Shown here in pieces: positions 4,871 through 25,605 of a stretch of 27,674 bases of DNA. Numbering within the stretch: the stretch's first letter is position 1; each line of letters begins with the position of its first letter. Source of the DNA: a virus (taxonomy: Duplodnaviria; Heunggongvirae; Uroviricota; Caudoviricetes); the IMG/VR virus record IMGVR_UViG_2799113139_000004; one strand, given 5' to 3'. A program made the position numbers and the translations under genes. The notes beneath the pieces are model-generated. The model searched no databases, had not been told where the DNA came from, and saw nothing but the letters and a program-made list of their open reading frames with translations.

Positions 4871-6055
4871 ATGGTCATGAAGGAGCGTTGGACGATGCCA
4901 GCGGGTTTGCGGCGAGCCTCGGCGCTGGTGGCAATTGTCGCTTTGGCTGTCGGTGGAGCGAAGGTTATCGACGGCCACACCGTCGCTGGTAGCGGCTTTT
5001 CGGCGGTCGCGACCGTGGCAGCTGATCCCACTGGCGGCCCAACAGGCGGGCCTGGCAGCGGGCCCGGAGGAATGAATGGAAGTCAGTTTCAGCCACCTTC
5101 TGCGCCTCAGCAGATGCCCGACTATCAGGGTGGAAACAACTTGCCGCCGCTAGATCAGAATGGCGGAATCAGCATCTATAACAGCGGGGTTCAAGGTGCC
5201 CCGCAACAGGCGCCGGGTGAGCAAAGCGCGCAACAGCCTCAGCAGGGCTGGGATCAGCCCGCTCATGGGAATCAGATTCCTGACTATCAAACGAATCCCG
5301 GGTTCACCCAAGGCCCCGGTAAGCCCAACCCGGACGCTCAAGCGCCTCAGCAAGGCAACCAGCCTCAGCAGGGTCAGCAGCAGCCGAGTCAAGCCCCGAC
5401 ACAACAGCAGCAGCCGGGGCAGGAGCGCGATAGTGATCGAATTCGGGATTTCTCCGAGAGGTGCAGTCTGGCGTCTGATGTGCTGCAGTCGGGAAGTGTG
5501 CCGGTCTCGCTGATCGGTGCGGCAGGGGGCGCCTTGGTGAATGCGCGCCTCGAGCCTGGTCGGGACCCGAGTATTCCGATTTGCCCGGACTGTAACCCAC
5601 CGGTTCTTAAGCAATTCACTGATGGGGACAATCCGCTGGATCAGTTGTGGCGGGATGTGCTCAAAAAGTACGTCGACGAGAAGATGGATGAAGCCAAAGA
5701 AGAGGCCATTGACAGTGCTTTGGAGCCGTTGAAGAAGTGGCTCTCGGAGAACTCGACGGCGGACTGCGGTATCACCTCATGCTCGGTCTATTTCCACAAG
5801 AACGTAACGAAGTGGCTTAAGGACAACGCAGCACTTACTGCTCTTGCTCCGGCGGTAAGCGGCTATATCCTGTGCACTGTCGTCGGCGCTAAAACTAACG
5901 CGTATGTGGGTGGCGCATGCGGATTGGCGAATACCGCCAGCTGGGCTTTTCTTATCAATGCCATCAACCGTGCGGGCGACGGCACTGGTTGCCTGCGCGT
6001 GCGTGCGGGTATCCCTGCCGGGTATTACGCTGATCATTCGGGGTTCTGTGTATGA
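4871..6055 (+). CDS. Exported P/Q-rich protein with PDYQGG/PPLDQN module and Cys-containing hydrophobic C-terminal domain, 394 aa
   Basis: Hydrophobic signal (RRASALVAIVALAVGGA), VAA-DP candidate cleavage site, module shared with 23449..25605, Q-rich linker. Confidence 0.85.
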   Translation: MVMKERWTMPAGLRRASALVAIVALAVGGAKVIDGHTVAGSGFSAVATVAADPTGGPTGGPGSGPGGMNGSQFQPPSAPQQMPDYQGGNNLPPLDQNGGISIYNSGVQGAPQQAPGEQSAQQPQQGWDQPAHGNQIPDYQTNPGFTQGPGKPNPDAQAPQQGNQPQQGQQQPSQAPTQQQQPGQERDSDRIRDFSERCSLASDVLQSGSVPVSLIGAAGGALVNARLEPGRDPSIPICPDCNPPVLKQFTDGDNPLDQLWRDVLKKYVDEKMDEAKEEAIDSALEPLKKWLSENSTADCGITSCSVYFHKNVTKWLKDNAALTALAPAVSGYILCTVVGAKTNAYVGGACGLANTASWAFLINAINRAGDGTGCLRVRAGIPAGYYADHSGFCV

Positions 6056-6489
6056 GCAAGCAGCTTATGAGGAGATATGCCGTCGCGTTTGGTGCCGTGG
6101 CCGTGCTGGTGGGATGCTCCGCCCCCGAAGAGGGTGCGGGGGAAGTCCCTGCGGTAGAGAAGGCCGTCCGGGGGTATGTTGAGGCCTATAACAGCGGGGA
6201 CGTTCAGCGGTATCTAGGTTCGATGTGCCCAAGCCTGAGGGATTCGCGTGTAGCAAAAACAAGATCGCCCGACCGAGATTTGAAGGATGCTCTTGTTCAG
6301 GATGGGGCGATGGCCCTCGACTCCATCACCGATGTTCACCTGGAATCGTCAACCAAGGCCACTGCGCTGGTTCAAATTCGCTACGCCAATGATGAGAAAA
6401 ACGGCGGTACCGGCGCCTTTCCGCAGAAGCAGGTTTTTATTAAGGACGGTGACCGTTGGATGATCTGCACTGGGAAGACCGACGAGTAA
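6052..6489 (+). CDS. Lipoprotein, Rv0361/NTF2-like
   Basis: Lipobox LVGC; AVRGYVEAYNSGD..YLGSMC and final VFIKDGDRWMIC are NTF2-like; ATGA overlap with the upstream gene. Confidence 0.75.
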   Translation: MSKQLMRRYAVAFGAVAVLVGCSAPEEGAGEVPAVEKAVRGYVEAYNSGDVQRYLGSMCPSLRDSRVAKTRSPDRDLKDALVQDGAMALDSITDVHLESSTKATALVQIRYANDEKNGGTGAFPQKQVFIKDGDRWMICTGKTDE

Positions 6490-6493
6490 TAGA

Positions 6494-6676
6494 GTGCGTC
6501 AGATGGAGAAGAAAACCGCCCTCAAGCGCCTCACTCTTTTGAATAGTGCAATTGCCGCTGCGTGGTGGCTCACCTATCCGCTATTAGGCCTCAAAGGTGT
6601 GGTTATAGGCGAAATCGTTATCTTTGTGGTCACGGTGATCGCGGCCGTGTCGATCGAGAGAAAGATGGAACGCTGA
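6494..6676 (+). CDS. Small two-TM membrane protein, 60 aa
   Basis: Two hydrophobic stretches; fills the gap between neighbouring operon genes. Confidence 0.65.
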   Translation: MRQMEKKTALKRLTLLNSAIAAAWWLTYPLLGLKGVVIGEIVIFVVTVIAAVSIERKMER

Positions 6677-6678
6677 GA

Positions 6679-7260
6679 ATGTTTGCCAAGACCGGATCTT
6701 TGATCGCTGGGATGGTCGTACTCTCAGTAGCGGGATGCTCAAGCACGGAGCCATCAGGGACGGGCGCCACGACAGTCCGTACCTCCGTAGCGTCAGGTCC
6801 GGTGGATTTCGCAAAGATCCCGGGACAAATACCTGCTGAGGCGGAAATGACGCAGCAGGGAAGCGAAGAGGCGCCTATCGGAGCCTGCGTCTACCTCAAG
6901 GGAAAACCCGGCAGCGTCACGCTAAACAAAGTGGACTGTGACTCCCAAGATGCGAACTACCGTGTCATCCAGAGAGTCGGCTTCCCTGACCAATGCGTCA
7001 ACGACGCAGACCGACGATTCTACTTGGGCAGTCCGCAGGGCGAATGGACTGCCTGCATGGACTACGCATGGACGAGTGAGGGCTGCATCAGCGTCGCGCC
7101 GGACAAGGTTGTCCGGGCCGAATGTGATGACAAAAATCTGCCGAACCGAGAACGGCCAATAACGATCTTATTCAATACGATTGATACCAGCCGCTGTCTT
7201 TTCGGCGGGTTTGCACATCCGGTGCGCCGGTTCACGGTATGTACGGAGACCCAGAAGTAG
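6679..7260 (+). CDS. LppU-family lipoprotein
   Basis: ATG 6679; lipobox VAGC; Cys pattern GACV..KVDC..ANYRV..QC..TACMD..GC..EC..C..FTVC. Confidence 0.8.
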   Translation: MFAKTGSLIAGMVVLSVAGCSSTEPSGTGATTVRTSVASGPVDFAKIPGQIPAEAEMTQQGSEEAPIGACVYLKGKPGSVTLNKVDCDSQDANYRVIQRVGFPDQCVNDADRRFYLGSPQGEWTACMDYAWTSEGCISVAPDKVVRAECDDKNLPNRERPITILFNTIDTSRCLFGGFAHPVRRFTVCTETQK

Positions 7261-7270
7261 CCTGTCATGT

Positions 7271-8066
7271 GTGGCTGATGGTGTAGCTCAGCGGCGGTGG
7301 ACCGCTGACGAGCTGGCAGTGGCGCTGGACCGGTCACTATCGTGCGCCGAGGCTGGCGCGAGGTTGGGCCGCACCCGGCTACAGGTGGAGAAGGCTCGAA
7401 AGCGGTACCGGGGACGCGATATTGAGCAACTGCTCGCCCAGAAACGTGGTCGCGCTGCCGAGCTAGAGCAGGTAGCCGAGACCGACATCGCCTGCTATGG
7501 GTCATGGACACCACAGGAGATCGCGATCGCACTGGATCGGTCGATTTCCCGCACTGAAGCGGCCCGCCGGTTGGGGCGTTCCTTCAGGGCGATCAAGCAC
7601 ATTCGAGACCTGCAGCGCCAAAAGGCCTCGGGTTTGATCCCGGCGCGCGAGTCGCGCGCGGAGCCGATACGGCAGCGCCTCTGGACCGAGGATGAGATCG
7701 CTGTCCTGGCCGATGAGTCCCGCACACCTACGGAGATTGCCGCCTTCGATCAATTCGGTCACTGTGGCTCGTGCGCGGTGGCTGGGGCGCTTGCAGGGCA
7801 AGGTCCCTGAACATCTGCACGGAACCAACACGGGCGTGAGCCGATACGGATGCCTATGTCCGCGGTGCCGGGACGCGGCCGAAGCAGAGCGGGAGCGACG
7901 CCAAGAGGCCACCCGGCACACGGCGGTCAACTACAAGGCGCCCTGGACCGACAGCGATATCGAGATCGCGCTAGATCGCAACCTGACCGTGATTGAGGCC
8001 GCCCAGCGCTTGGGACGAACCCACAGCGCGGTGCGTGCGCTGCGATACAAGTACCGAGACTCCTGA
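7271..8066 (+). pseudogene. Phage protein with four Myb/HTH-like repeats, frameshifted near 7745
   Basis: Repeats WTxxE..ALDRS.S..EAA.RLGR occur in ORF 7181..7810 (two complete, third broken after EIAA) and continue in ORF 7692..8066 (SINSV...CLCPRC...WTDSDIEIALDRN). Confidence 0.75.
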
Positions 8067-8131
8067 TTGCCGTTGGGCACGAGGTCACCGACGTACGCGT
8101 TAGGGAACTTGTCGCGTGGTGGGCGTGCCAT
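7931..8131 (-). CDS. Possible phage gene fragment (MARPPRDKFPNAYVGDLVPNG...)
   Basis: Its ATG follows the same 22-bp motif as gene 4579, at the same spacing; the 3' part is antisense to the HTH-repeat gene. Confidence 0.3.
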   Translation of the reverse strand: MARPPRDKFPNAYVGDLVPNGNQESRYLYRSARTALWVRPKRWAASITVRLRSSAISISLSVQGAL

Positions 8132-8202
8132 GTTCTGGTTCTACGCCGAGGGTCTGACACATTTGCTACGTTCACGTGATGGTTGAAGTTAGGGGTGCGG
8201 AA

Positions 8203-8847
8203 ATGACTTCGATTTCGAATGAAACCGAAGATGAAAGGGCAGCCAAGGCTGGCATACGGATGCTTACAGGAATTGGCGGGTTAATCCTGCTGTTTGCCTT
8301 GGCGAATCTGGACTACGTTCCGCGCATCATTCGTTTCAAACAAGTCCACCCTGATCTGTTCTGGTGGACTGCGGCGATAACCGGCATAAACGCGGCGATC
8401 ATCCTGCTCGCGGCTGTCGTTCTATGGAACTGCCCGCCTCGACCACTGATACCCGACAATCGACTTACGGTGCGGGTGAAGCAGATTGCGAAATTCTTGG
8501 TCGGCGCCACGACCTTCGGACTCGCTGCCTTCTGGGGAGCCCTAGCTGGCGCCATGATGCCTTCGCCTGAGAAGGGCGTCACGCACGATGAGATGAATCA
8601 TCTTCTAGGCCAGATCGTGGGTGAGCCATTGAAGTTCATGACCATGCTGGCGTTAGTGGGAATGGTCCTAGCACTTTGTTTGGATCTCTACGTGGTGGGT
8701 CGAGAACGTCGAAAATCTATATTTAGAGGGCTACGCCCCGTGCTGGCGTGGCTTTGCACGCAACTGACATCACCGCGGGTGATCGGCACCGTGTCTTATC
8801 TGTCGCTGGCGATGATCACCTGGTGCGGCACGCTCCCACGCACCTAG
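8203..8847 (+). CDS. Multi-pass membrane protein
   Basis: About five hydrophobic segments; start may be 8176 or 8203. Confidence 0.75.
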   Translation: MTSISNETEDERAAKAGIRMLTGIGGLILLFALANLDYVPRIIRFKQVHPDLFWWTAAITGINAAIILLAAVVLWNCPPRPLIPDNRLTVRVKQIAKFLVGATTFGLAAFWGALAGAMMPSPEKGVTHDEMNHLLGQIVGEPLKFMTMLALVGMVLALCLDLYVVGRERRKSIFRGLRPVLAWLCTQLTSPRVIGTVSYLSLAMITWCGTLPRT

Positions 8848-8925
8848 TCGGCTTCAATGCCAATTCTGAATTTCCCCTAAATATGCATACGGCCTGACGG
8901 CGCCAGTGTAAGTATCACGGCAAAT

Positions 8926-9444
8926 ATGGTTCGTGGGGGATCTGAAATGGAAGGCGGCACAATGGAACGCGAGCGCAGGCTACAGGCAGGACATTGGTAT
9001 CTGGTAGCCGATGAGCACGGGCAGGCCGATATCCGGGCTTACATGGATGACGGGTGGTATCCCCTCACCCCCGAGCCGAAGTACGCCGTATGTGAGATGA
9101 GCAGATCACACCACCCGGACAACGTTGACCCCATCGTTGATTCGGCCGATGATGTGGAAGTGCCCGAATCTGATCAGGCCATTATCGAGCACCACTATCC
9201 CATCGCTATTTCCGGTTCGCCCGTATCGAAACTGGTGTGGGTCTTCGCAGAGCGAATCTCAAGGGCAAACGGGGCCGATTGGGAAGACCTCGACAGCCGC
9301 GCAAACTACTTGGCGATCTCCACTGGTTTCATCAAGCAGGCGCAAGACAACACCAATCCGCCTACCCCGCCAATGCTAGGCGTCTTCCGGCCCAAGCGCT
9401 GGCCGATGAAAACTACGCCGCAGGAACCGGTTCCAGTTGGCTAG
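8926..9444 (+). CDS. Hypothetical protein
   Basis: 172-aa ORF with protein-like composition; start uncertain (8926/8947/8962). Confidence 0.6.
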   Translation: MVRGGSEMEGGTMERERRLQAGHWYLVADEHGQADIRAYMDDGWYPLTPEPKYAVCEMSRSHHPDNVDPIVDSADDVEVPESDQAIIEHHYPIAISGSPVSKLVWVFAERISRANGADWEDLDSRANYLAISTGFIKQAQDNTNPPTPPMLGVFRPKRWPMKTTPQEPVPVG

Positions 9445-9468
9445 GCGTCGACCACGCCTTGAACACCT

Positions 9469-10514
9469 TTATGTGAGGCCCCTCGCGTTCCGTGGCCGCT
9501 CCGCCCGCACCGTGCGCACATCGCCAATGCGAACCATCTGGTGCCCCTGGGCGTCCCGGCCGCGCACCGGCACCCGCCCGCGTCTGATCCACCGCTCGAT
9601 GGTCGACTGCGGCACGTGCTCATCAAGGCGGGGGAGTATCACGTCGACGAGTTCGCGCACGGTCGCGTTGCGGTCGTCGAGCTCGCTAAGGTTGCGTGCC
9701 AGCACGTCGGCCACCGAATGCGCGGTGTCGCACTGGGGGCACACGATTGAGCCGCTGTGGCTCGGTGCCATGAGTGCGTATCCGCACCGGGTTGAGTTGT
9801 CGCCCTTGCGGCCCCGCTCGGCAAGCACCTCGTCGGGTGCCGGGTCGGTGATGCATGGTCCGATGATCATGGGCTCGGGTGGGCGGTTCACCACGCGTGT
9901 AATTGACCGGTACACCTGCTCGATCTCGTCGCAGATCTCGGCGCCGTTCTCCTGCAACGCGATATTGGCCGCGTGCCGGTGCAGCCACTTGGCCATGCGC
10001 GCCGTCGTCGCGATCGAATGCGTCTCGTCGCCGCGCCTTCCTGCGTAGATGACGCGCCAGTTTTCCGCGGAAAACTGGTCGAGTGCGCGCGTCTCCGGGG
10101 CGCCGTCGCAGTCGTCGCACAGCGGTCCGGCCGCCGAGGTGGGCAACGTGACGAAGCATCGTCGACACGAGCCCGCCCGGGCCGGCGGTGCCGAATCGAG
10201 GCTGAACCGATCTGCCGGTCGCCGTGCATCCGATTCGACGACCATCGGCAGAGGCCTTGGACTCGTGCGGAACTCGGGCACCTCCAGCCCGCGCGTCTCG
10301 CACATGTCGCGGATGGTCGTCGACAGCGCGTTGCGGATTCGGTCGAGCTCGTCGCTGGCGCGTCCGTTGACCCGGCCGAGTGCCAGGGCATGCCACAGTG
10401 CCCCCTGGTGCCTGTCCCGGTGGTCCCTCGCGGTCGGGGTGGTGTCCTTGTCGCGCGGGAACGGTTCGACGTGGCTCACGAGCGTGTCGTCGCCGTGCAG
10501 TACGTCGCGGCGCT
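9469..10514 (-). pseudogene. 5'-truncated phage regulator (Zn-ribbon plus C-terminal HTH)
   Basis: GPC...RCGYAL...IVCPQC and STIERWIRRG..VRIGDV resemble actinophage late regulators. The frame is open upstream of GTG 10479 (RRDVLHGDDTL) until a stop at the junction near 10514. Confidence 0.7.
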
Positions 10515-10793
10515 ATTTCGATCCGACTGAAGCAAGAGCTGGTTGCGTTGGGTCTATCGGTGAACAGGGCGGCCAAAGAGCTTGGTGTAAGCCAACCTTG
10601 GCTGTCACGCCGAACCCTCGGTGGCGTCCGATGGAAGGTGGAGGAGGTAGACGACATCTGCGACAAGCTCGGTCTTGATGCCAACTACACCCTCACCGGT
10701 TACCGCTCACTGCCTGACGGCGGTGACGACGGCGGTGCTGCTGGTGCCCCCACCAGGGCTCGAACCTGGGACCTGCGGATTAAAAGTCCGTAG
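10512..10793 (+). pseudogene. Prophage immunity repressor (HTH), 5' end deleted, reading through the att core
   Basis: AISIRLKQELVALGLSVNRAAKELGVSQPWLSRRTLGGVRWKVEEVDDICDKLGLD is an XRE-like HTH; it ends GAPTRARTWDLRIKSP* antisense to the tRNA. No start codon or RBS. Confidence 0.8.
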
Positions 10794-10817
10794 CTCTACC
10801 AACTGAGCTATAGGGGC
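10742..10817 (-). tRNA. tRNA-Lys(TTT)
   Basis: GCCCCTATAGCTCAGTTGGTAGAGCTACGGACTTTTAATCCGCAGGTCCCAGGTTCGAGCCCTGGTGGGGGCACCA; CCA encoded. Confidence 0.97.
10775..10790. repeat. att core, right copy
   Basis: Identical to 2108-2123. Confidence 0.9.
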
Positions 10818-11641: not shown

Positions 11642-12475
11642 ATGCCGCAGCACAGCCCGGGGATGGCGACCCCCAGCGATCACTCAGTGATATGGGCGAG
11701 CGCGAGCGCATCGATGCCGACCACCCTCGATCGCCCTCACGACGTTCCGCGTCCGGAGTCGGTCGACGAGATTAGCCGATGGGCCGGCAGCGAGGATCTG
11801 CGGCGCACCGAGCTCGTGTATGTGCCCGTGTTCTGGGTGTTCCTTCCCCTCGCTGTCATCGGTTTCCTGATCTACCAGATGATCACCGACCCGACGGGTG
11901 CTGGCTGGAGCATCACGGCAAATGGTGCGAGCCGTGATACGTGGCTGGCTTGGGTGCCGTGGCTCGCATGGATCGGCGTCACCGTATGGCTGCTCATCGC
12001 CGTCGGGGTTCTGCTGCTGCGGCTCAGTGCGCTGAGGGATCTGCGTGTCGAGAACGCGTGGGTCTACGGGCATGGCGTCGCGCACTCGATCCATCGCGCC
12101 TGCATCGACCACGACGACGGTGAGGCTCGCTGGGCGACGTATATCGCCATCAACCACCGCCTCGATGACGGACAGGCTGCGACGATTCACGCCGCGTTCG
12201 AGCTGTGGCTCTTTCAGGCAGGACTGCCGCCTTCGGGCTCCAAGCCGATCTCCTCGGAGACGCTGTTCGGTCCGCAGGCCAAGGGCGGGTACTTCATCCT
12301 GCACCTCCCCGTCTCGACGATCGCCGGAGACACCACCGAGCACCAGTGGATGCTCATCACCCAACCGCAAGAGGACGAGCGCGACGTGATTGTCACACCT
12401 GTGCCGGTACCGAAGAGACTCGCGAGGATCCGCCGCAGGCTCCACCGGAAGACAGTCCGAAGGGGCGCGCTGTGA
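11642..12475 (+). CDS. Two-TM membrane protein, array family C (FGPxAxGGY)
   Basis: Two TM segments; C-terminal domain similar to 17927..18682. Start uncertain. Confidence 0.8.
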   Translation: MPQHSPGMATPSDHSVIWASASASMPTTLDRPHDVPRPESVDEISRWAGSEDLRRTELVYVPVFWVFLPLAVIGFLIYQMITDPTGAGWSITANGASRDTWLAWVPWLAWIGVTVWLLIAVGVLLLRLSALRDLRVENAWVYGHGVAHSIHRACIDHDDGEARWATYIAINHRLDDGQAATIHAAFELWLFQAGLPPSGSKPISSETLFGPQAKGGYFILHLPVSTIAGDTTEHQWMLITQPQEDERDVIVTPVPVPKRLARIRRRLHRKTVRRGAL

Positions 12476-13089
12476 GCAGGTTGCGGGTGATCACGTTGCA
12501 GAGCCTGACCAGTCCTGATCAGCAGACTCGGCAGTGGATGGCGAAGGCCCGTACCCCGGAGACTCGCGCGGAAATCCGGCGGTGGTCGCGTTGGGAGACC
12601 GTGTCGGTGTGTCTTTTAGTCGTCGGCGGGCTCTGCGCTCTGGGAGCTCCGCTTGTCGGGGTGGGTCTCGGCGTCTGGGACGCCATCCACGGCGACGCCC
12701 CGTGGCTGTGGTGGCTCATCGGGTCCATCGGGGCCGCGTCGCTGTTCCTGCTCGCAGGAGCCTGGTTCGGGTCGTATGCCAGCGACCGGCGGTTGACGGC
12801 GCTTTACGCCGACGGACAGTCGGCAGTCGGGCGTGTCGACGAGGTCATTACCCATCCGGGCGGTGGGGATGAGCAGGCCACCTACGAGTTGCTCATCAGC
12901 GCAGAGCTCCCCGACGGCACATTGGTGCGTCGCAGGCTCGACTGGGGCGAGGACAACACCAGTTGGCCCATCCCTCGGCGGTGGGTCGGCCGCACCATCC
13001 GGTTCCGCCACAACACCCTCGATCCCGACGATCTGCGGGACGTCCGCTTCGACGGCTGGGCAGACGAGACGAACGCAGGCCGCTCATGA
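12472..13089 (+). CDS. Two-TM DUF3592-like protein, array family A (FRHNTLDP)
   Basis: GTGA overlap; ARTPETRAEIRR, two TMs, RFRHNTLDPDDL. Confidence 0.85.
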   Translation: MSRLRVITLQSLTSPDQQTRQWMAKARTPETRAEIRRWSRWETVSVCLLVVGGLCALGAPLVGVGLGVWDAIHGDAPWLWWLIGSIGAASLFLLAGAWFGSYASDRRLTALYADGQSAVGRVDEVITHPGGGDEQATYELLISAELPDGTLVRRRLDWGEDNTSWPIPRRWVGRTIRFRHNTLDPDDLRDVRFDGWADETNAGRS

Positions 13090-13676
13090 GCGACGAGTAC
13101 GTCGAGTACTGGGTTGCTCGGGCGAAGACGCCCGAGACCCGGGCACGGATCCGCCGTCTCTCCCGGCTCGAAGACCTCACGAACGGCATCCTGCTCACCG
13201 GAATGATTCTGTTCCTGCTGATGGCCCTGACGAGGGTTGTGCTCGCCATCTGGTTCTGGGCCCCCGACGCCGGTGACTCGACCATCTTCCTCTGGGTGCT
13301 CGGGATCACCCTCGGGGTGACGGTGACCAGCGTGTTCCTGAACAGCGCCGTCGAGACCCGCCTCTCCCAGGCGAAGTTCGCCGACGGATATAGCTCCGTC
13401 GGCGTGATCGACGCTGTCCGCTCGTGGGAGGGAACCGACGGGGAAGGCTCTCCCACGACCTTCTACGCACTCGCCGTGACCGCCGCGCTCCCGGACGGGG
13501 GTACGATCCGAAGGCACGTGGACTGGAGCACCGACAGCGGATCCGGCAGCTCGGACACACCCGACGAGACCTGGGTCGGGCGACGAATCAGCTTCCGCCA
13601 CAACACCCTCGACCCGGAGGATCTCGCAGACGAGCAGTTCGCCGGCTGGCCGGATACGGAGGTGGAACGCTCATGA
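13086..13676 (+). CDS. Two-TM DUF3592-like protein, family A
   Basis: ATGA overlap; AKTPETRARIRR ... SFRHNTLDPEDL. Confidence 0.85.
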   Translation: MSDEYVEYWVARAKTPETRARIRRLSRLEDLTNGILLTGMILFLLMALTRVVLAIWFWAPDAGDSTIFLWVLGITLGVTVTSVFLNSAVETRLSQAKFADGYSSVGVIDAVRSWEGTDGEGSPTTFYALAVTAALPDGGTIRRHVDWSTDSGSGSSDTPDETWVGRRISFRHNTLDPEDLADEQFAGWPDTEVERS

Positions 13677-14320
13677 GCACAAAGGATCGTAAGGAGTCGC
13701 TGCTTGAACGGGTCGCGGAGAGGCTGCTCGTCGGCTCGGGGCCGGAGGTGCCGTTCCTCGTCCGTCACGACTGGGCGATCCCGGCCGTCGTGTTCACCGG
13801 ATGCGGTCTCTTCGCGGTCCTGGTGCTGGTCGCGAGCTTCCAGGGATGGGGAAGGGTGCTCATGTGGACCGTCATCGGGATCGGCGCGCTCTGCGTCGTG
13901 CTGATGATCCCGACGTTCGTCCGGATGTTCCGAGCCACCCGCGGTCCCTTGCCCGCGCTCGACCGCACCCCGCGGACAGCACGAGTGACCCTGCGTGCGG
14001 ACGACGCGGACGGCGGGCAGACGATCCTCGTTGAATACCGCGATGAGCACGGACAGGGGCACGACGCGGAGCTCGCCGATGTCATCCATGAGTCTTGGGA
14101 GGACCGGTTCTGTCCCGGCTCGCGGTGGCAGGTCTACGCGTTCCGCGATCCCGAACTGGCCGACTCGGTCGTGTTCCTCACCGAGGCCCACGACGACGTA
14201 TGGCGGGCCGGGTGGAAGCTCGACGGCGTCCGCATCGGCGGTGAAGGCGGCCCCGTCAAGCCCGGACCGGGATCGCCGTTCCTGCGCGCGGGCTCGAAGT
14301 GGGAGTTCGCCGCCTCGTGA
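13673..14320 (+). CDS. Two-TM membrane protein, array family B (LTEAHDDV...GSPFL)
   Basis: ATGA overlap, RBS GGAGGTGG; paralog of the next gene. Confidence 0.85.
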   Translation: MSTKDRKESLLERVAERLLVGSGPEVPFLVRHDWAIPAVVFTGCGLFAVLVLVASFQGWGRVLMWTVIGIGALCVVLMIPTFVRMFRATRGPLPALDRTPRTARVTLRADDADGGQTILVEYRDEHGQGHDAELADVIHESWEDRFCPGSRWQVYAFRDPELADSVVFLTEAHDDVWRAGWKLDGVRIGGEGGPVKPGPGSPFLRAGSKWEFAAS

Positions 14321-15478: not shown

Positions 15479-15792
15479 GTCGCGCAAAGAACTTCCTCGG
15501 CGCTCTGTTCGGGTGGCGATACCGCCGCGCCGAGCGTGCTCGGAGTATCCGGCTCACCGGGCCGCGGGTGCGGGCGAAGGTGGTCGAGGTGAAGCGCTCG
15601 AAGGGCAGCAACGTCCACGCGTACTACGACGTCATCCTGCGCTTCACCGACTCCCAAGGAATCGAGCACGATCACAAGGCCATGACGCGCACCCACAAGC
15701 CCTACGTCGGCAGCAAGCACTGGATCCGCTACGACCCAAAGAAACCGAATCGAAAGTCCACCTGGTTCGTCGACTGGGAACGGCGGCGGTGA
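15475..15792 (+). CDS. DUF3592-type soluble domain protein, 105 aa
   Basis: G..V.AKVV...V..RF...G.EH...VG....IRYDPKKP pattern; ATGA overlap; basic, no clear TM. Confidence 0.7.
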   Translation: MSRAKNFLGALFGWRYRRAERARSIRLTGPRVRAKVVEVKRSKGSNVHAYYDVILRFTDSQGIEHDHKAMTRTHKPYVGSKHWIRYDPKKPNRKSTWFVDWERRR

Positions 15793-16304: not shown

Positions 16305-16337
16305 GGCGCGAAGGCCGGGTGCGCCCGCGTCGATATC

Positions 16338-17108
16338 GTGGCGTGTATGGGTGATGGGCAGGAACCAGCGGACGTGGAAGCGACTGCGGTGCCGTGGTCA
16401 CCGCGCCGCCGCTGGACGTTCGGTGTTCTCAGCGGGGTGGTGGTGCTGGCACTTTTCGTATTCGTTCCCGGCCCCGTCTCGGGGATCCTCAAGGCGAACA
16501 ACGCCCGTCAGCTGGTTGACGACGTCTCCACCGGACGCGCAAAACTGCTCGCCAAACAGGACGAGTTCCGGCCACCGCTCGCGAGCTTAGGAAACCCGGC
16601 GCGCTCATGGACTCAGGTCTCGTGTTGGATGTCCCCGCGCTACAGCGATGGCGACGGTGAGCAGGACGTGGTCATGTTCTACTGGCAACAATGCGCGCTC
16701 CTGGCCTACGAGATCTACGCGCTGCCGCCCGATGCCGGTGACGCAGCGCAGGTCGCACAGCGCCTCCGTGGCCACTCTGCGGGTGAACCCTCCTGTGCCG
16801 AGCCACTCTTCGACGTGCTGACCCCCGACGTCGGTGCCAGCAGGATCGACGAGTTTGCGACAGGTCTCTGGTGGATGAATCCCGAAGGAGTACCGCCGTC
16901 TCATCAGCCGGACCGCTGCACGATGCCCACCCCGGACGACCCCGACACTGCACACACGCAAATAGGTATCGATGCCCGATTGGGCGCGGACGCCTACGTC
17001 GTCTACCAGGTCCGATCGCCAGTCAGCATGGTTGATGTGGGCTGCGACCGGCGACTGTCCTGGCTCGCTCCCTGCAGGGGAGAACCGGAGGGCTTCCCAA
17101 CGCTGTGA
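16338..17108 (+). CDS. Membrane-anchored exported protein with Cys-containing domain
   Basis: RRRW followed by one TM, then a soluble domain with several Cys. Confidence 0.75.
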   Translation: MACMGDGQEPADVEATAVPWSPRRRWTFGVLSGVVVLALFVFVPGPVSGILKANNARQLVDDVSTGRAKLLAKQDEFRPPLASLGNPARSWTQVSCWMSPRYSDGDGEQDVVMFYWQQCALLAYEIYALPPDAGDAAQVAQRLRGHSAGEPSCAEPLFDVLTPDVGASRIDEFATGLWWMNPEGVPPSHQPDRCTMPTPDDPDTAHTQIGIDARLGADAYVVYQVRSPVSMVDVGCDRRLSWLAPCRGEPEGFPTL

Positions 17109-17121
17109 ACCGAGCAACGCG

Positions 17122-17919
17122 CTACAGCAGCTGCTCCGGCAGCGGGCCGCAGACGTCGACGAACGGACCCATCACCAGTTCGAAGACTCGGGCGTCGACG
17201 TCGTTGGGGGCGAGGTCGCGCATCAGGGCCGCGACGCCGAGTGTCCAGAACGGCCCGCGATCGATACCGCGGCCCTGCGGGGCGACATCATGCAGATGCG
17301 ACAGGAACGCCCCGACCTGCTTTCGTAGATCGTCGGGGATGCTCGGGCCCCAGGAGTACAGCTCGGCTTCTGCTCGAACCCAGGCGTTTCCGTCACGGCG
17401 GATGTGATCGAGGATGGCCTGGGCCTCGGGCGTCGTCAGCAGGCCGAGCCGGTAGCAGACGGCGTCCCAGGCCGGGTGCGCCGCCGACGCGGTCGGTGTC
17501 ATCAGGTTGGCCAGTTCGGCGGCGGAGGGCGGCGGGTACAGTGCCGCCAAGGCGCTCGTGCGCAGGTCCCGGGCGTCTCGGATCGCCTGCAGATCATCTG
17601 GCACGAGCGGCAGATCCGGGCCGCACGGTGGTTCGAGCAGGATCACGCGTTTCGGATCGGCCCCGTCGATGATCACTGGGGCGTGCCAGCGGATGACCAG
17701 TCCGGTGAAGCTCCCTGGATCCGTGCCGCTGCGCAGTTCCGCTCGGAAGGAGGCTCGGCCCGGCGGCTGGACCTCGATGATCGCCGCGTCGTGATCAACT
17801 TGGAGCACGAGCGCACGCGCGTAGACGGGTTCGGCGAGGTCCGGGACACCGACGTCCGCCGACGCCGCGTCTCCGGTGGACGGCCGCTCCCGCCCGCGCA
17901 GTCGGTCTATCCAGCCCAT
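17122..17919 (-). CDS. Hypothetical protein, 265 aa
   Basis: Last gene of the minus-strand operon; purine-rich RBS; protein-like. Confidence 0.75.
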   Translation of the reverse strand: MGWIDRLRGRERPSTGDAASADVGVPDLAEPVYARALVLQVDHDAAIIEVQPPGRASFRAELRSGTDPGSFTGLVIRWHAPVIIDGADPKRVILLEPPCGPDLPLVPDDLQAIRDARDLRTSALAALYPPPSAAELANLMTPTASAAHPAWDAVCYRLGLLTTPEAQAILDHIRRDGNAWVRAEAELYSWGPSIPDDLRKQVGAFLSHLHDVAPQGRGIDRGPFWTLGVAALMRDLAPNDVDARVFELVMGPFVDVCGPLPEQLL

Positions 17920-17926
17920 GCGCTTC

Positions 17927-18682
17927 TCACCCCTGTGCCTGGTCGACGGGGATCACGAGCGCATTGCGCATCGGGTATGCCGGGGCCTCGGGTTCTCGCC
18001 AGTCGAGCAGCAGCGCCCACCGTGAACGCTTGGCGGTCCCGCGGACGAGGTATCCACCGGAGGCCTCGGGGCCGAAGATCTCGTCAGATGCGAAGGCGTT
18101 GATGATGCGCCGCCGGAACCCCGAGTTCCACGCATTCTTGGCGGCGGAGTCGGCTTCCTTGTCGGCTTCGAGGCGGGCCAGCCAGATCCGGAATGCGGTC
18201 GCGATCCTCGACACCTGCTCATCCGGGGTGCGTGCGTCGATAGCGACCGAGGTCAGGCACCACCCATCGCCGTCACCGATGTGAAAGCTCGTCGGATAGA
18301 TCTCACACAGCACACCGCGCGCGGGTGGGAAACCCTGGCGCTCTTCATACTTGCGCCACTGCCGGTGCCCGAGCCACAGCGCCGGCCCAACGATCAGCAG
18401 AACGACGCCGGCGAACCACTGCACACCAGCGGAGGTGCTGCGCCCGCTCAGCGGGAACACCCCGACCAGCAGGCCACCGACGAGAATCGCACCAACTACG
18501 GTGAACACCAGGGCGACCGCCGGCACGAACACCCGCTGCCCGCGCACGTCAGCCGCAATCTCCTCCAACGGCCTGATCGACGGCCGCTCGCCATACCGTG
18601 ACTTCGCCGCTGGGGCAGCGACTGCCTGCGCCCATGCGGACACGGGATCGGCGGGCCAGGGCCGAAGCTCAGTCGGACTCAC
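17927..18682 (-). CDS. Two-TM membrane protein, family C
   Basis: GTG 18682 overlaps the upstream stop (GTGA); VAIDAR..DEQ..I..AF..WL...S.EIFGPEASGGY matches 11642..12475. Confidence 0.8.
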   Translation of the reverse strand: MSPTELRPWPADPVSAWAQAVAAPAAKSRYGERPSIRPLEEIAADVRGQRVFVPAVALVFTVVGAILVGGLLVGVFPLSGRSTSAGVQWFAGVVLLIVGPALWLGHRQWRKYEERQGFPPARGVLCEIYPTSFHIGDGDGWCLTSVAIDARTPDEQVSRIATAFRIWLARLEADKEADSAAKNAWNSGFRRRIINAFASDEIFGPEASGGYLVRGTAKRSRWALLLDWREPEAPAYPMRNALVIPVDQAQG

Positions 18683-19200
18683 CCGGTGCCTCGCTGATGT
18701 TCGCGGATGCTGTCGAACAGTGCGTCCTCCAGGTCGTCGGGGTCCAGAGTGGTGTGCCGGAAGCGCAGCGTCTGCCCGATCCGTGGGCGGGGGTGGTCCC
18801 CACCCACGGTGCAGTGCCTTCGGATGGCCGGCCCGCCCTCCACTGCCACGGACACGGACACGGACACGGTGAGCATGAAGTAGCGCGAGACGCTGCCGTC
18901 GTCGTTGGTACGACGCACCTCGGTGACCTCTTCGATCGGCGCTTCGGAAACATGCGCGTTGGTGAACCACGCGCGGTACCGCTTGTGCCCGCAGTAGAGG
19001 CCGCCGAGGATGCCCGCCGGGATCAGGACGAAGACCGCGACGGCGGTTGCGACCCACAGCTGTTCTGGGCTGGAGCTGAACGCGCTCGCGATGGCTCCGA
19101 GCAGACCGGTCACCGCCAGAACCAGGCACGTGATCGCCCCGACGCCCCACCAGCGGTAGGCGCGGCCGGGCGGGGTCGACGCGGACTCGTGGGCGCTCAC
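18679..19200 (-). CDS. Two-TM DUF3592-like protein, family A
   Basis: GTGA overlap; RFRHTTLDPDDL. Confidence 0.85.
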   Translation of the reverse strand: MSAHESASTPPGRAYRWWGVGAITCLVLAVTGLLGAIASAFSSSPEQLWVATAVAVFVLIPAGILGGLYCGHKRYRAWFTNAHVSEAPIEEVTEVRRTNDDGSVSRYFMLTVSVSVSVAVEGGPAIRRHCTVGGDHPRPRIGQTLRFRHTTLDPDDLEDALFDSIREHQRGTG

Positions 19201-19685
19201 GAGCCAGGCCCCAACGACGCGTTGCGCTCCTCACGCCCGACGAACGCGTCGTCGAGGTCATCCGGGTCGAGGGTGCGGTGACGGAACCGGACCTGGTTCC
19301 CGACCCAGCCGAGCGGATCAGGATCCCCGCCGATGTCGATCCGCCGGTGGATCGACACCCCGTGTGCGAGTTCCGCATCGATCAGCAGCTGGTACTTCGA
19401 TGCCCCGTCTCCGAACTGGCTTTCCAGCACGTCGCGGACCGTGCCCACGGCGGTGGGGGCTCCCGCGAAGAGAGCCACGCGGTGCTTGTCCCAGGCGATC
19501 CTGAGCAGGCACCCGCTCACCAAGGTGGCGGCGAACCCCGCGATCCACACCCAGTGCGGGGAGGTGCCGAGCACACTGGCGATGCAGAACACGACCCCTG
19601 CCAACGTGAGGAACGCGAACAGCGACCGTGCGAGGTTCCAACGCCGGACGCGGTGATCGACCGACACGTCACTCAGACCATCCAC
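19197..19685 (-). CDS. Two-TM DUF3592-like protein, family A
   Basis: RBS GAGGGGAG; RFRHRTLDPDDL. Confidence 0.85.
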   Translation of the reverse strand: MDGLSDVSVDHRVRRWNLARSLFAFLTLAGVVFCIASVLGTSPHWVWIAGFAATLVSGCLLRIAWDKHRVALFAGAPTAVGTVRDVLESQFGDGASKYQLLIDAELAHGVSIHRRIDIGGDPDPLGWVGNQVRFRHRTLDPDDLDDAFVGREERNASLGPGS

Positions 19686-22254: not shown

Positions 22255-23391
22255 ATGCCTAGGCGGTTCCATCTCAGATCGGTTTTGTTGGCGGCCGTGA
22301 CAGCGGTTGCTGGGTTTGCGTTATCTAGCGCGAGTGCAGCTGGAGCAGACCCCAATCAGCCTGGGCCTCCTGCTCCGGCTCCGCCGCCGTTGGCGGTGCC
22401 GCAGCCCGATAATTTGCCGCGTGCGGTGAGTATTGGTGGGGCACAGGCTAAGACGAATGTGCCGCAAGGGATGGGGTCAGGAACAGGGCGACCTCTTGCG
22501 GAGGCGCGCCAGCGTGGTGTGGTGGCCGTTCCGCCAATCGCTACCGACGGGGTACATGCCGCGACCGCTTGGCCAGGCAAGCAAGTCGTCATCCATCTAC
22601 CCAACGAACGGGCCTTGACGGCTGCCAATTGGGGTGAGGGCGGTGCGGCCGCATACGGATCAGGCCCGGTGGATTATGTGGTGCTCCCCGATGCCGGCGG
22701 GGGCGCCGATATTCGCATGATTCGCAAGACCTTCATCTCGCCGAGTGACTTCACGTTGGGCGTCCGCTATCCGGAGGGCACTCATCTGCGCCAAGCCGCG
22801 CAAGCGGTGGTTGTTGAGACCGATGCAGCCCCCGGACATTCGGCAGCGATTATCGGGGCGCTGAGCATCCCTGATGCAAAAGACGGTGCCGGTAACCCGA
22901 TCCCGGTCACACCGTTGGTCGGGGGAAGTTATCTGTATCAGCAATCGGATGTGAATCTGAACGTCGGCGATGTCGGATTGCTCAATTTTCCCGTCACCAT
23001 CACCGTGGCCTACCGGCCATCTACCGGTGTTCCGGCGGTCGCTCAAGGCGATCCCGCGCCTAAAGCACCAGCGGGCAGTGCGGCCGGGCGGTGTGTGTCT
23101 GGGCCGCCACAATTCGCCGGCGGCGGGGACGACGGAACCCCTGGCGGGGCCGCTGATTTCGCGCCGTCGTGTGCCCGGCTGGCTGCGTGCATGAGCGCTG
23201 CCCCCGCCCACACCAGCGCCCTAACGTGTGAGAACACGTTTATGGCCGACCTGACGAATACCTGCGTGGCCGCGTTCGGCCACGACGGCGGTGACTACGA
23301 GGGCTGCCTGGCCACCGCCAACGGGCATGTGCGGTGGGCCAAAGAAAACCTGGCACCCGGCCAGCCCGCCGCAGCAGCGGGCGGAGCTTGA
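22255..23391 (+). CDS. Exported protein with C-terminal phospholipase A2-like domain lacking catalytic residues
   Basis: Signal peptide MPRRFHLRSVLLAAV...; C-terminal DFAPSCARLAAC...CENTFMADL...C...CLATA. Confidence 0.75.
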   Translation: MPRRFHLRSVLLAAVTAVAGFALSSASAAGADPNQPGPPAPAPPPLAVPQPDNLPRAVSIGGAQAKTNVPQGMGSGTGRPLAEARQRGVVAVPPIATDGVHAATAWPGKQVVIHLPNERALTAANWGEGGAAAYGSGPVDYVVLPDAGGGADIRMIRKTFISPSDFTLGVRYPEGTHLRQAAQAVVVETDAAPGHSAAIIGALSIPDAKDGAGNPIPVTPLVGGSYLYQQSDVNLNVGDVGLLNFPVTITVAYRPSTGVPAVAQGDPAPKAPAGSAAGRCVSGPPQFAGGGDDGTPGGAADFAPSCARLAACMSAAPAHTSALTCENTFMADLTNTCVAAFGHDGGDYEGCLATANGHVRWAKENLAPGQPAAAAGGA

Positions 23392-23448
23392 CATGCCTAC
23401 GGCACAACATCTTTCACAGCACGTTCTCCGGGGAAAGAAGGTTAACCG

Positions 23449-25605
23449 ATGACCGACACCGATCGCCCTGATGGCGATGATGCGCCCACGCAAACCCTGC
23501 CCGCCGCAGCCCCATTGTCCGCGCCGGAGTTGACGGGCTTTCCTGCCGGGATCGTCGGGGCCGCGCTGACGGTGCTCGGGGTGTGGGGTCTACATGTGCT
23601 CACCCGCGGTGATGGTGTGGCAGGTGTCCTCGGCTGGGTGATCCTGCTGTGCTTGGCCTTTAGCGCCTTGGGTAAAGGCATCACCTTGCTACGTCGCGCC
23701 CTGGCCCCGCTGTCGGCGGTGTGGTCGGCATCGGTCGACGGTGTGCCACCGCTGCTACGAGCCGCGGCGGGGATCATTGTCGGTGCGGCCGGTATCTGGT
23801 GGGTGATGCGCGGACACGCCAGCGGATGGTGGGCACAGATAACCGGCGGTGACTCCGGCAGCGGGCTGGGGTGGTCGCTGCCCTCACAGCTCGTGCAAGT
23901 GGCGATCATGGTGGTCGCCGGAGCGCTGCTGTTCGGCGGCGCCAAGGTCTTGGGCAAGCTTATCTTCGCCAACTCCGGTACCCGCCAACAGCCCTCACCC
24001 AACCACGACGGTGGCCAGCGTTGGCGGCAGTGGTGGGCCAGCCACCCTGGCCTGGGTTTGACGCTGCTGGCTGGCGGCGGCGCTCTGGTGTTCCTGTCCG
24101 GGTATGTAGTTCCGCGGGTGTCGTCATGGTTGACCGGCGATGACCCGATGGCGGCCCTGGCGGCGATCACCGCGATCCTGGCTCTGGCGCTGCTGGCCAA
24201 CACGTGGTGGTGGCGGGCGCTGTCGGGCTGGTGGGCGTGGGCTCACACCCCCAACGGCCCCGGCGGGCCCACCCCGATCGGGCAGATCTATGCCGGCGCC
24301 GGGGTGTTGGCATTGATCGCGTTCTCGGCCACCGCCTTCGGTCTGGCCACCTTCTCCTCTTACCTGCCCCAGAACGCCGCTACAGCTTCGGCTGATCCGT
24401 GTGGGGATCGTTGTGGTGGGGGTGGCAATGGGCAAGGTTCCTATGGTCCAGATACCGGTAACTTCCAGCCTCCGCAGATGCCCGGTCAGCAGCCCGACTA
24501 TCAAGGCGGGATCAATCAGCCGCCGCTAGACCAAAACTCGGGGATCTCGATTTACAACGAAAGCCCTGGCCAGGGCGGTCAGCAGATTCCGCAACAAAAC
24601 ATGGGCCCGCAGACCTCTGGCCAGCGCGCCGCACACGGAGAACCGTTGCCCAACTACGGGCCCTGGCAACCCGACGCACAACCTCCCGCCCAAGCACCCG
24701 TACAACAGGCACCCGTTCAGCAGGCTCCTCAAGCTCCGCAGCAGCCCGCACAAGCACCACAAAATCCTGCCGGCCAGCAGCCGGCGCAGCAGGCACCGCA
24801 ACAACCAGCCGGGCAGCAACCGGCACAACAGAATCCGCCGCAACAGGGCCAGCCTGGCCAGCAGCAGCCACAGAATCCTGTCAACCAGCAGACCCCGCAA
24901 CAGCAGCCGCAGAAAGAGCCGGACACACCGAAGAAGAATCCGATGGATCCCACGGATCTCGCGACGGCGGCCACACGCCGCGGTTCACAACAAGCCGGGC
25001 AGCAAGCCGCCCAGCAGGCTGGACAACAAGGCGCCCAACAAGCGGCCCAGCAGACCACCCAGGGGACACAGCAGGCGACCCAGCAGGGCACACAAAAGCC
25101 GGTCGAATCCGGCGAACAGTTCCCCGCCGACTTCCACATGGGCCAGCTCGGTGACGGCCTGAGCAAAACCGGGAAGTACGCCAATACAGGTACCCACTGG
25201 GCTCCCGACGCGAAAGTCTCGACCATGTCGAAAAGCACGGCCCAAAACCTTCTGCGGGCCGGAGAAAAGTTCACTTGGCTGGGGCGTGGGATGGAAGTCG
25301 CCAAAGCTGGTGTCGACTTGGCCAATGGTGCGCCGGTACCGGAAACGGTCGGTAGCACTGTGGGTTCGCTTGCCGGCGCGTGGGCCGGGGCCGAGGGCGG
25401 TGCCATCATCGGGGCCTCGATCGGATCATTCTTCCCCGGCCCCGGCACCGTGATCGGGGGTGCAGTAGGCGGGGTGATCGGCGGGTTCGTCGGCAGCGGC
25501 CTAGGCTCCGAAGTAGGAAAAGCGGCCGGCGGGGCTGTCCGCGCAGCTGGTTCTGCACTCTCCAAAGCTGGCGGCGCCGTCGCATCCTTCTTCGGCAGCT
25601 TGTAA
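23449..25605 (+). CDS. Multi-pass membrane/exported protein with PDYQGG/PPLDQN module, Q-rich linker and glycine-zipper C-terminus, 718 aa
   Basis: About 320-aa hydrophobic N-region, ASA-DP, shared module, PQ linker, repeated GxxxG C-terminus; RBS GAAAGAAGG. Confidence 0.88.
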   Translation: MTDTDRPDGDDAPTQTLPAAAPLSAPELTGFPAGIVGAALTVLGVWGLHVLTRGDGVAGVLGWVILLCLAFSALGKGITLLRRALAPLSAVWSASVDGVPPLLRAAAGIIVGAAGIWWVMRGHASGWWAQITGGDSGSGLGWSLPSQLVQVAIMVVAGALLFGGAKVLGKLIFANSGTRQQPSPNHDGGQRWRQWWASHPGLGLTLLAGGGALVFLSGYVVPRVSSWLTGDDPMAALAAITAILALALLANTWWWRALSGWWAWAHTPNGPGGPTPIGQIYAGAGVLALIAFSATAFGLATFSSYLPQNAATASADPCGDRCGGGGNGQGSYGPDTGNFQPPQMPGQQPDYQGGINQPPLDQNSGISIYNESPGQGGQQIPQQNMGPQTSGQRAAHGEPLPNYGPWQPDAQPPAQAPVQQAPVQQAPQAPQQPAQAPQNPAGQQPAQQAPQQPAGQQPAQQNPPQQGQPGQQQPQNPVNQQTPQQQPQKEPDTPKKNPMDPTDLATAATRRGSQQAGQQAAQQAGQQGAQQAAQQTTQGTQQATQQGTQKPVESGEQFPADFHMGQLGDGLSKTGKYANTGTHWAPDAKVSTMSKSTAQNLLRAGEKFTWLGRGMEVAKAGVDLANGAPVPETVGSTVGSLAGAWAGAEGGAIIGASIGSFFPGPGTVIGGAVGGVIGGFVGSGLGSEVGKAAGGAVRAAGSALSKAGGAVASFFGSL
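24988..25095 (+). repeat. Degenerate 12-bp (QQxx) coding tandem repeat
   Basis: QQAG QQAA QQAG QQGA QQAA QQTT QGT QQAT QQGT. Confidence 0.6.

Follow-up and report, generated by a model that had tools for sequence, protein, structure and literature searches.

The window analysed here, a 27,674-nucleotide stretch of DNA (IMG/VR record IMGVR_UViG_2799113139_000004), raises the question of why two of its genes, encoding proteins of 394 and 718 amino acids (aa) that differ at both ends, share one conserved internal region, which we call the module. Judged by their sequences, the two genes are paralogs within a lineage-restricted family of the Mycobacteroides abscessus/chelonae group, with outliers in a few Mycolicibacterium. 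We consider it likely that this family is a polymorphic toxin-immunity system, in which an export element, a small-x-small/D(P) site (the slash marks the putative cut), a disordered module with a Gln/Pro spacer and an exchangeable toxin domain are followed by a downstream immunity gene. We base this proposal on features that can be read directly: the architecture, the diversity of the C-termini, their co-variation with downstream genes, the linkage of the genes, the predicted disorder of the module and its taxonomic range. Coordinates in the window are collected in Table 1.

One module between exchangeable ends

The original prediction had singled out a 32-residue stretch in each protein (5087-5182 and 24463-24558); translation gives both exactly as quoted, with 25 of 32 residues identical. 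In a composition-corrected BLASTP comparison of the whole proteins, 28 of 56 residues (50%) were identical at an E value of 6e-9, from the module core (DYQGG...) to a second motif, AHGNQIPDY at 5261-5287 and AHGEPLPNY at 24631-24657, which follows the pattern AHG-x-x-x-P-[DN]-Y. Outside this 56-aa stretch, BLASTP aligned nothing but one weak hydrophobic match: the C-termini are unrelated, and the N-terminal regions differ, one hydrophobic segment in the 394-aa protein standing against seven predicted transmembrane (TM) segments in the 718-aa protein. A cleavage-like site is present in both (V-A-A/D-P at aa 49-53 and A-S-A/D-P at aa 313-317, respectively), as is a long linker of about 31-33% Gln and 16-18% Pro. 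The module, of about 100 aa, lies after this signal-peptidase-like site and before the linker. The match between the two 32-mers is far beyond chance at the sequence level, because an alignment of the module in six paralogs has 34 invariant columns and 127 representatives were found with it at E <= 1e-10. The latter number comes from an exhaustive search of 1.84 billion proteins with a profile built from the six-sequence alignment, which returned 170 representative clusters in all, with the module at about positions 45-160 or 300-440 of the protein.

Our searches also showed how narrowly the family is distributed. The nearest genome (G001; 5,067,172 bp, with 92% of sampled window words in common) has six module genes, with frames of 410, 579, 719, 804, 1171 and 1185 aa. 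M. abscessus ATCC 19977 has six loci and carries both the 394-aa and the 718-aa protein. A word-indexed search with the module region retrieved 591 proteins, and all of the named ones were from Mycobacteroides (abscessus, franklinii, salmoniphilum, immunogenum, chelonae and saopaulense); the TM domain was additionally found in Mycolicibacterium mucogenicum and aubagnense. Of the 400 species-representative genomes examined in the GTDB genus, 13 had the module, against none of about 364 drawn from 33 further genera of the same taxonomic family. Copy number was 4-10 in seven genomes of 4.3-5.1 Mb and 1-2 in six larger genomes. The profile somewhat underestimates the true range, since a diverged form of the module (FQPP..MP..YPAPPQ-NGIDINNP..HG-QPP-YD) occurs in further species, where it adjoins the partner gene (see below). 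Spread by prophages, which had been proposed for the family, can be upheld for members with a signal peptide: the module occurs in 24 phage or prophage records, and the 394-aa gene itself lies in a prophage remnant. No module was found on plasmids in PLSDB. In the 24 records the carriers are labelled "hypothetical", "membrane protein" or "metallopeptidase", and the 394-aa protein matches phrog_35557 and phrog_30921, both labelled "unknown function". Elsewhere in public data, the Gln/Pro-rich linkers have led to members being named "Transcription initiation factor TFIID subunit TAF12", "Forkhead/HNF3 transcription factor", "Type IV secretory pathway VirB10" and "phage holin family protein".

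The C-termini vary, as predicted. We retrieved 274 proteins, namely 146 of the TM class, 112 of the signal-peptide class and 16 truncated ones; the 246 with enough sequence past the module fell into 76 C-terminal clusters, many with known toxin domains. In 45 signal-peptide-class proteins, each with a different C-terminus, conservation extends just to about residue 200 and ends at a Q-x-C junction. A Pfam scan of one representative per cluster identified nuclease or toxin-type domains (Colicin_D, 1.8e-21; Ntox44, 1.3e-12; Endonuclea_NS_2, 5.8e-18; Tox-REase-7, 6e-15), together with GH-E, Gln_amidase (glutamine deamidase, Papain fold toxin 1) and a barnase-type Ribonuclease. Further representatives matched cell-wall hydrolases (Amidase_2, Amidase_6, GH19, NlpC/P60), lipid-acting enzymes (prokaryotic PLA2; Abhydrolase_8, 7e-47; cutinase), peptidases (M10, M12, M48) and the uncharacterised families DUF2599 and DUF6973, and the majority of cluster representatives had no Pfam match. 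Several C-terminal types are found behind both the signal-peptide and the TM forms of the N-terminus. At equivalent loci, near-identical N-terminal halves are joined to different C-termini: a glycine-zipper type (718 aa), a phospholipase-like type (835 aa) and a third type (774 aa).

The glycine-zipper-like type is that of our 718-aa protein, whose gene is present in 2432 index blocks of public assemblies and whose C-terminus belongs to C-terminal cluster 0, with 26 members. This C-terminus gave a sub-threshold Pfam match to Gly-zipper_Omp (E 0.008), and its Atlas features, which are leads only, scored 0.90 against clusters of the Gly-zipper kind and 0.80-0.83 against colicin pore domains; the type is probably membrane-active. 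Residues 515-698 of the same protein (window about 24991-25542) match the PHROG entries "tail associated lysin" (E 1e-11) and "endolysin" (E 3e-4), which probably reflects common glycine-rich membrane-active or low-complexity segments. The C-terminus of the 394-aa protein has no homolog beyond its own 90% cluster and gave no Pfam, NCBIfam or Atlas lead.

Downstream genes that follow the C-terminal type

If the C-termini were toxins, the gene directly downstream should change with them. Our comparison took in 32 toxin loci and hence 496 locus pairs; besides the window, the loci came from prophages, from G001, and from other species and metagenomes. In pairs of the same C-terminal type, the first downstream gene or genes were homologous in 9 and not homologous in 3, versus 1 match and 483 without a match in pairs of different types; the locus pairs are not phylogenetically independent, and the comparison is descriptive, which tempers its weight. 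The lone match between different types is probably spurious, involving a short overlapping open reading frame (ORF) in the conserved lipoprotein region. A shared module, variable C-termini and co-varying downstream genes together make up the architecture of a polymorphic toxin, as had been proposed.

The original prediction had also noted small membrane or lipoprotein genes after each toxin gene, and these are indeed present, two after the 394-aa gene and three after the 718-aa gene (Table 1). Following the latter are proteins of 91 aa (25625-25900), with three hydrophobic segments, and 110 aa (25897-26229), with two. Homologs of both follow every other glycine-zipper copy examined, in three further genomes (L025, L026, L038; 33-51% identity), and are absent, in the 32-locus comparison, from loci with other C-terminal types. 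From this pattern and its C-terminal type, we take the 718-aa protein to be, most likely, a toxin that damages membranes and is neutralised by the 91-aa and 110-aa proteins. The 145-aa lipoprotein after the 394-aa gene fits a type-specific gene, because it has no homolog at the other toxin loci examined; we propose that the 394-aa protein is an envelope-acting toxin, neutralised by this lipoprotein. Other types behave in a similar way. One C-terminal type occurs on a signal-peptide protein of the nearest genome and on a TM-class protein from a metagenome, and a homologous lipoprotein comes after both (E 5e-15). A third C-terminal type, at two unrelated genomic sites, has the same two neighbours with 60% and 57% identity. 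Downstream of the Endonuclea_NS_2 paralog lies the gene of a SUKH-like protein that is not secreted; three SUKH families match this protein over the full length, all below curated cut-offs (best SUKH_6, E 1e-4). After the phospholipase-like type, the neighbour is a secreted Rv2576c_beta protein. This suggests that the immunity candidates are matched to the expected site of toxin action.

Further downstream, the cassettes have members that do not depend on toxin type. Homologs of the Cys-rich lipoprotein are found 3' of toxin and immunity genes in 11 loci from several species, and those of the LpqN-like lipoprotein in 10 loci, with any toxin type in each case; some loci have both. A PknH_C-domain lipoprotein gene (Pfam E 8e-19) lies at 26919-27674, right after the LpqN-like gene, and runs off the end of the window.

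The diversity of domains could be explained differently: the family might consist of secreted housekeeping or host-directed enzymes, or of adhesin-like envelope proteins, in which the module and the Gln/Pro spacer tether hydrolases, the downstream genes being unrelated or self-protective. Many of the C-termini would suit such a role, being lipases, cutinase, PLA2, peptidases and peptidoglycan hydrolases. M. abscessus lives in amoebae and macrophages, so such enzymes could target the host, and several downstream genes belong to generic mycobacterial lipoprotein families (LpqN, DUF4333, PknH_C). However, the Colicin D, Ntox44, Tox-REase-7, GH-E, EssD-like and barnase-like nucleases have no plausible extracellular housekeeping role and are accompanied by non-secreted neighbours, while the tight co-variation of the first downstream gene and the swapping of types at one locus are hallmarks of toxin-immunity cassettes. 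We regard this explanation as unlikely for the family.

Export, the module and a possible route

The AlphaFold2 prediction of the module from a 127-sequence alignment had a mean predicted local distance difference test score (pLDDT) of 55 and a predicted template modelling score (pTM) of 0.14, with no strands or sheet and a single short helical turn; local confidence was highest over FQPP..PDYQGG..PPLDQN. A folded module was accordingly rejected, and the module is best read, on this prediction, as conserved linear motifs in a disordered region. One might then suppose that the module has no function of its own and is a slowly diverging piece of low-complexity linker from a recent ancestor, carried along by recombination. 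Its predicted disorder, its almost complete lack of secondary structure and its setting in Pro/Gln-rich sequence would agree with that, as would the youth and narrow range of the family. But the motifs do not vary, unlike the adjoining linker, which is free in both length and sequence, the position of the module is unchanged behind two unrelated export elements, and the diverged module persists where partner genes are just about 40% identical. A functionless module is thus very improbable in our judgement.

As for the N-terminal elements, LRR and A-x-A-DP are conserved in the whole set of 45 signal-peptide-class proteins, whatever the C-terminus. In the 718-aa protein, the loop charges, as we read them from the sequence, fit an N-in/C-out topology, which would put the module outside the cytoplasm. 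When 11 divergent members were aligned over the 7-TM domain, the invariant residues were mostly Gly, Ala, Trp and Leu, with no invariant catalytic-looking polar set. Atlas look-alikes of its fold are all unannotated actinobacterial membrane proteins, and MFS matches were weak (template modelling score 0.3-0.36). A PrsW-like self-cleaving peptidase was considered as the role of this domain and rejected, there being no family match and no conserved catalytic residues. Neither the module nor the N-terminal domains could be assigned to a known family; Pfam and NCBIfam gave low-complexity noise alone (TFIIA, PSMbeta). TM-class proteins have one more conserved element, an Arg-Arg (RR) motif, D(P/L)..L..AA(S/T)TRR(G/R), between spacer and toxin domain. 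It is present in 11 of 11 TM-class proteins inspected, of various C-terminal types and species, and in 1 of 112 signal-peptide-class proteins.

The setting of the window brings these genes close to a different kind of toxin cassette. By shared sequence, the window is chromosomal DNA of an M. abscessus-type strain. Over bases 1-1905 it matches the right end of prophage prophiFSQJ01-1 without a difference; this end holds a WXG-100-type (ESX-type) cassette (window 3-1783, minus strand) with a 490-aa ORF containing EspA-like TPR repeats and a 103-aa WXG-100-type ORF. Between the two tRNA-Lys copies, positions 2214-10514 are about 91% identical to MabC-type M. abscessus prophages; since this 8-kb piece is all that is retained, the 394-aa gene is inside a prophage remnant. 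The 718-aa gene, 19 kb away, is in chromosomal DNA. The arrangement of two tRNA-Lys copies with a remnant between them looks as if phages had integrated in tandem or serially at a single attachment site, and ESX-type and non-ESX toxin genes lie no more than 3 kb apart as a result. Positions 11642-19685 are filled by a long series of ORFs that have no Pfam match, beside a tRNA-Glu/Asp/Phe cluster; a relation of this 8-kb membrane-protein array to the small immunity candidates was ruled out, no similarity being found at E 1e-3.

Could the family, then, consist of ESX (type VII) substrates, with an unrecognised signal, or with Sec used for membrane insertion and ESX-4 or ESX-3 for release through the outer layer? 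All mycobacterial polymorphic toxins described to date are ESX-linked (PMC8092301, PMC13444075), and the ESX-type cassette is 3 kb from the 394-aa gene. Against this, eight family members tested gave no Pfam or NCBIfam match to WXG100 or LXG, no PE/PPE-like helical N-domain was seen, and no WXG100 helper gene was found in the cassette or among the genes called at seven loci; ESX substrates are not known to start with a signal peptide or with seven TM helices. The neighbouring ESX cassette, moreover, belongs to a different prophage, beyond the tRNA-Lys attachment site and on the other strand. We consider dependence on ESX to be quite unlikely. The original prediction of a Sec-routed, non-ESX system is supported in that no ESX-type N-terminal domain was detected, the proteins instead beginning with a signal peptide or a polytopic membrane domain; export by Sec alone would be an inference from these features.

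Directly upstream of the 718-aa gene lies a gene for a secreted partner protein. Its layout is a signal peptide, A-x-A-D-P, a Pro-rich stretch, a beta-sandwich (AlphaFold2, pLDDT about 80-88) and a Cys-rich helical domain with six invariant Cys in the alignment. At homologous loci in nine genomes, a co-oriented gene with the module or its diverged form lies directly downstream in 18 of 20; of the remaining two, one has a divergently oriented gene and one no toxin. The partner precedes toxins of both the signal-peptide and the TM class. It has no Pfam family, and its fold matches, weak at the whole-protein level and leads only, were to glycosidase N-terminal sandwiches, CBM96, DUF2599 and one "phospholipase". 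A universal neighbour it is not: the partner is absent upstream of 4 of the 6 paralogs in the nearest genome and of the 394-aa gene. One locus (L030, G001:C1:1889200-1894000) has a partner-family gene with an LpqN-like lipoprotein gene directly after it and no toxin in between, and may be a cassette stripped of its toxin and immunity genes. At two unrelated loci (L018:3650-4462, L022:2-196), MspA-type porin genes are directly upstream of the partner-toxin pair; one of these loci belongs to an element that also has FtsK/SpoIIIE and RepSA genes and resembles an actinomycete integrative conjugative element.

Based on these findings, we propose how a member of the family might work. Sec-type export or insertion would place the module outside the cytoplasm, and cleavage at A-x-A/D-P, a site that the partner also has, would make the module the start of the mature protein. 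The constant "delivery" element of the family would be the module rather than the N-terminus: the linear motifs of the module could bind a conserved factor, such as the partner, a conserved lipoprotein, a porin, or an envelope or target-cell receptor, in a manner analogous to the disordered translocation domain of colicins. The Gln/Pro spacer would bridge the thick cell envelope, and TM-class proteins may be released at the RR motif. The location of the immunity protein would track the target of the toxin, cytoplasmic for nucleases and a lipoprotein or membrane protein for envelope-acting types, and many loci do have an upstream secreted partner and one or two downstream lipoproteins as well. 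For the nuclease types, the immunity proteins look cytoplasmic, which implies that these toxins are imported into a target cell; we therefore favour a colicin-like "delivery" role of the constant region over that of a mere tether. Tat involvement, suggested by the invariant LRR, or a later ESX-dependent step may contribute. By analogy with colicins, the whole route might be ESX-independent and self-contained, the toxins being exported and then imported across the mycomembrane of a rival, with the module acting like a translocation domain whose motifs engage the partner, the LpqN-like or Cys-rich lipoproteins and perhaps MspA-type porins; we hold this extension to be rather doubtful.

Several points weigh against a toxin-immunity system. 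Many C-termini are ordinary hydrolases, which may have roles in nutrition, wall remodelling or host interaction, and the C-terminus of the 394-aa protein itself has neither a homolog nor a predicted activity. Secretion, A-x-A cleavage, toxicity and immunity are each predicted from the features above. The distance from hydrophobic core to cleavage site, about 20 aa, is long for a classical signal peptidase I site, and with the LRR invariant a share of Tat in export is conceivable. The partner appears not to be obligatory in cis, because it is beside only about 16 of 57 module matches in the sampled genomes (~28%) and the 394-aa gene has none. The SUKH assignment stays below the Pfam threshold.

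Table 1. Positions of family genes, their parts and neighbouring features in the window
Feature	Position	Strand	Basis or remarks
tRNA-Lys, copy 1	1858-1932		Abuts prophiFSQJ01-1-type prophage end
Signal-peptide-class family member, 394 aa	4871..6055	+	ORF, translation; in prophage remnant
Export signal of 394-aa protein	4871..5023	+	Basic n-region (LRR), hydrophobic core aa 9-27, spacer, V-A-A/D-P
Conserved module of 394-aa protein	5024..5335	+	FQPP..MP-DYQGG..PPLDQN-GISIYN..AHG-Q-P-Y..GPG-PNPD
Gln/Pro-rich linker of 394-aa protein	5336..5452	+	Ends at conserved Cys junction; composition, conservation profile
Variable C-terminal domain of 394-aa protein	5453..6052	+	Cys-rich, one hydrophobic segment; orphan type
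145-aa lipoprotein, immunity candidate for 394-aa protein	6052..6489	+	Lipobox LVGC; start overlaps toxin stop
Cys-rich lipoprotein, conserved 3' cassette member	6679..7260	+	phrog_21858
tRNA-Lys, copy 2	10742-10817		8.8 kb from first copy
Secreted partner protein	22255..23391	+	Directly upstream of 718-aa gene; conserved family, 39-100% identity
TM-class family member, 718 aa	23449..25605	+	ORF, translation
Polytopic N-terminal domain of 718-aa protein	23449..24393	+	Seven predicted TM segments; A-S-A end, then D-P-C-x-x-x-C
Conserved module of 718-aa protein, second copy in window	24394..24657	+	
Gln/Pro/Ala-rich linker of 718-aa protein	24658..25104	+	Contains RR motif DPTDLATAATRRGS at 24946-24987
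Variable C-terminal domain of 718-aa protein	25105..25602	+	Glycine-zipper-like type
Two small membrane proteins, immunity candidates for glycine-zipper type	25625..26229	+	Downstream co-variation
LpqN-like lipoprotein, second conserved 3' cassette member	26266..26910	+	Pfam Lpp-LpqN E 1.2e-6, above cut-off

Relation to known systems

The family has apparently gone unrecognised. Pfam and NCBIfam have no model for it, PHROGs label it as of unknown function, and motif and keyword searches of the literature, which were incomplete, returned no description of the module family, so that an earlier description elsewhere is possible; within the libraries searched, the family is undescribed, as had been suggested. 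What is new here beyond that prediction is the disorder of the module, the upstream partner gene, the two recurrent downstream lipoprotein families and the RR motif of the TM class. Protein-mediated competition between mycobacteria was first shown by experiment in 2026, and only for the ESX-4 substrate EatA (Benedict et al., PMC13444075), in a report that surveys toxins of the type VII secretion system, and the M. abscessus prophage papers cover only WXG-100/ESX cassettes (PMC8092301, PMC9934374, PMC9434293). Our family would add a second, larger and apparently ESX-independent arsenal in a drug-resistant pathogen, with 4-10 genes per genome, at least 76 toxin types and partial carriage by prophages. 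It also raises the question of how a Sec-exported, nuclease-bearing protein could pass through two mycobacterial envelopes, for which the module motifs, the partner protein, the lipoproteins and the RR site can be named as candidate parts of a route. These findings would bear on clone replacement and dominance in M. abscessus, on the fitness effects of prophages and on how hundreds of proteins now called "hypothetical" or misnamed are annotated, and should be of interest to researchers of mycobacteria and of bacterial competition.

The prophage WXG-100/ESX cassettes (Dedrick et al. 2021, PMC8092301) and EatA (PMC13444075) share hosts and mobile elements with the module family. In both kinds of cassette a variable C-terminal toxin is followed directly 3' by an immunity gene, often for a lipoprotein (LpqN-like), and both are exchanged between prophages. 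The WXG-100/ESX toxins, however, start with a helical WXG-100 domain, are accompanied by a small helper gene of the WXG-100 kind and are assigned to type VII secretion, whereas the module family has a signal peptide or a 7-TM domain with a disordered module, together with different accessory genes; it also lies mid-genome in the prophage, whereas the WXG-100/ESX cassettes are at the attachment junction. PrsW-type membrane-peptidase toxins, as far as the account of Zhang et al. 2012 is relayed in PMC9424270, are alike in that a polytopic N-terminal domain is fused to an exchangeable exported toxin. We found no Pfam match to PrsW/CPBP and no conserved Glu/His catalytic set in the 11-sequence alignment; nor was there a Pfam match to the features of contact-dependent inhibition and Rhs systems, namely two-partner secretion/haemagglutinin repeats with CdiB, or YD repeats.

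By its sequence features, the nearest described architecture is that of the S8-PTS of Gram-positive bacteria (PMC9424270), two defining features of which are lacking here. The S8-PTS/BetaH proteins (PMC9424270; PMC13556192) likewise have a Sec signal peptide, a family-defining region, one of many toxin domains and an immunity gene, with a conserved accessory gene in the operon and a dibasic motif before the toxin, the last found here in the TM class only. BetaH, however, is a globular acidic beta-sheet domain of about 120 aa, while our module is predicted to be disordered and has no sequence relation to it; the AlphaFold2 scores given above, with no strands, indicate that a globular domain of the BetaH type is not present. 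The accessory gene of S8-PTS encodes an S8 peptidase, whereas those of the module family encode a beta-sandwich/Cys-rich secreted protein and lipoproteins. No S8 peptidase gene was found in the window or in the cassettes examined. One locus has an unrelated 856-aa S8 gene 2.3 kb off, on the opposite strand.

Colicins and other protein bacteriocins of diderm bacteria are modular as well, with exchangeable cytotoxic domains, a cognate immunity gene and a disordered translocation domain containing short motifs. Colicins have no signal peptide, are released by a lysis protein, and use a folded receptor-binding domain and the Tol or Ton system. Unlike them, the module family has a signal peptide or a TM domain; no lysis gene or central folded domain was seen for the 394-aa and 718-aa proteins, and no use of Tol or Ton is present. 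As a functional analogy only, the resemblance lies in the Colicin D and pore-former-like types, in the immunity gene, in the outer membrane that nucleases must pass on the way to the cytoplasm of the target cell, and in an N-terminal region with conserved short motifs that is predicted to be disordered.

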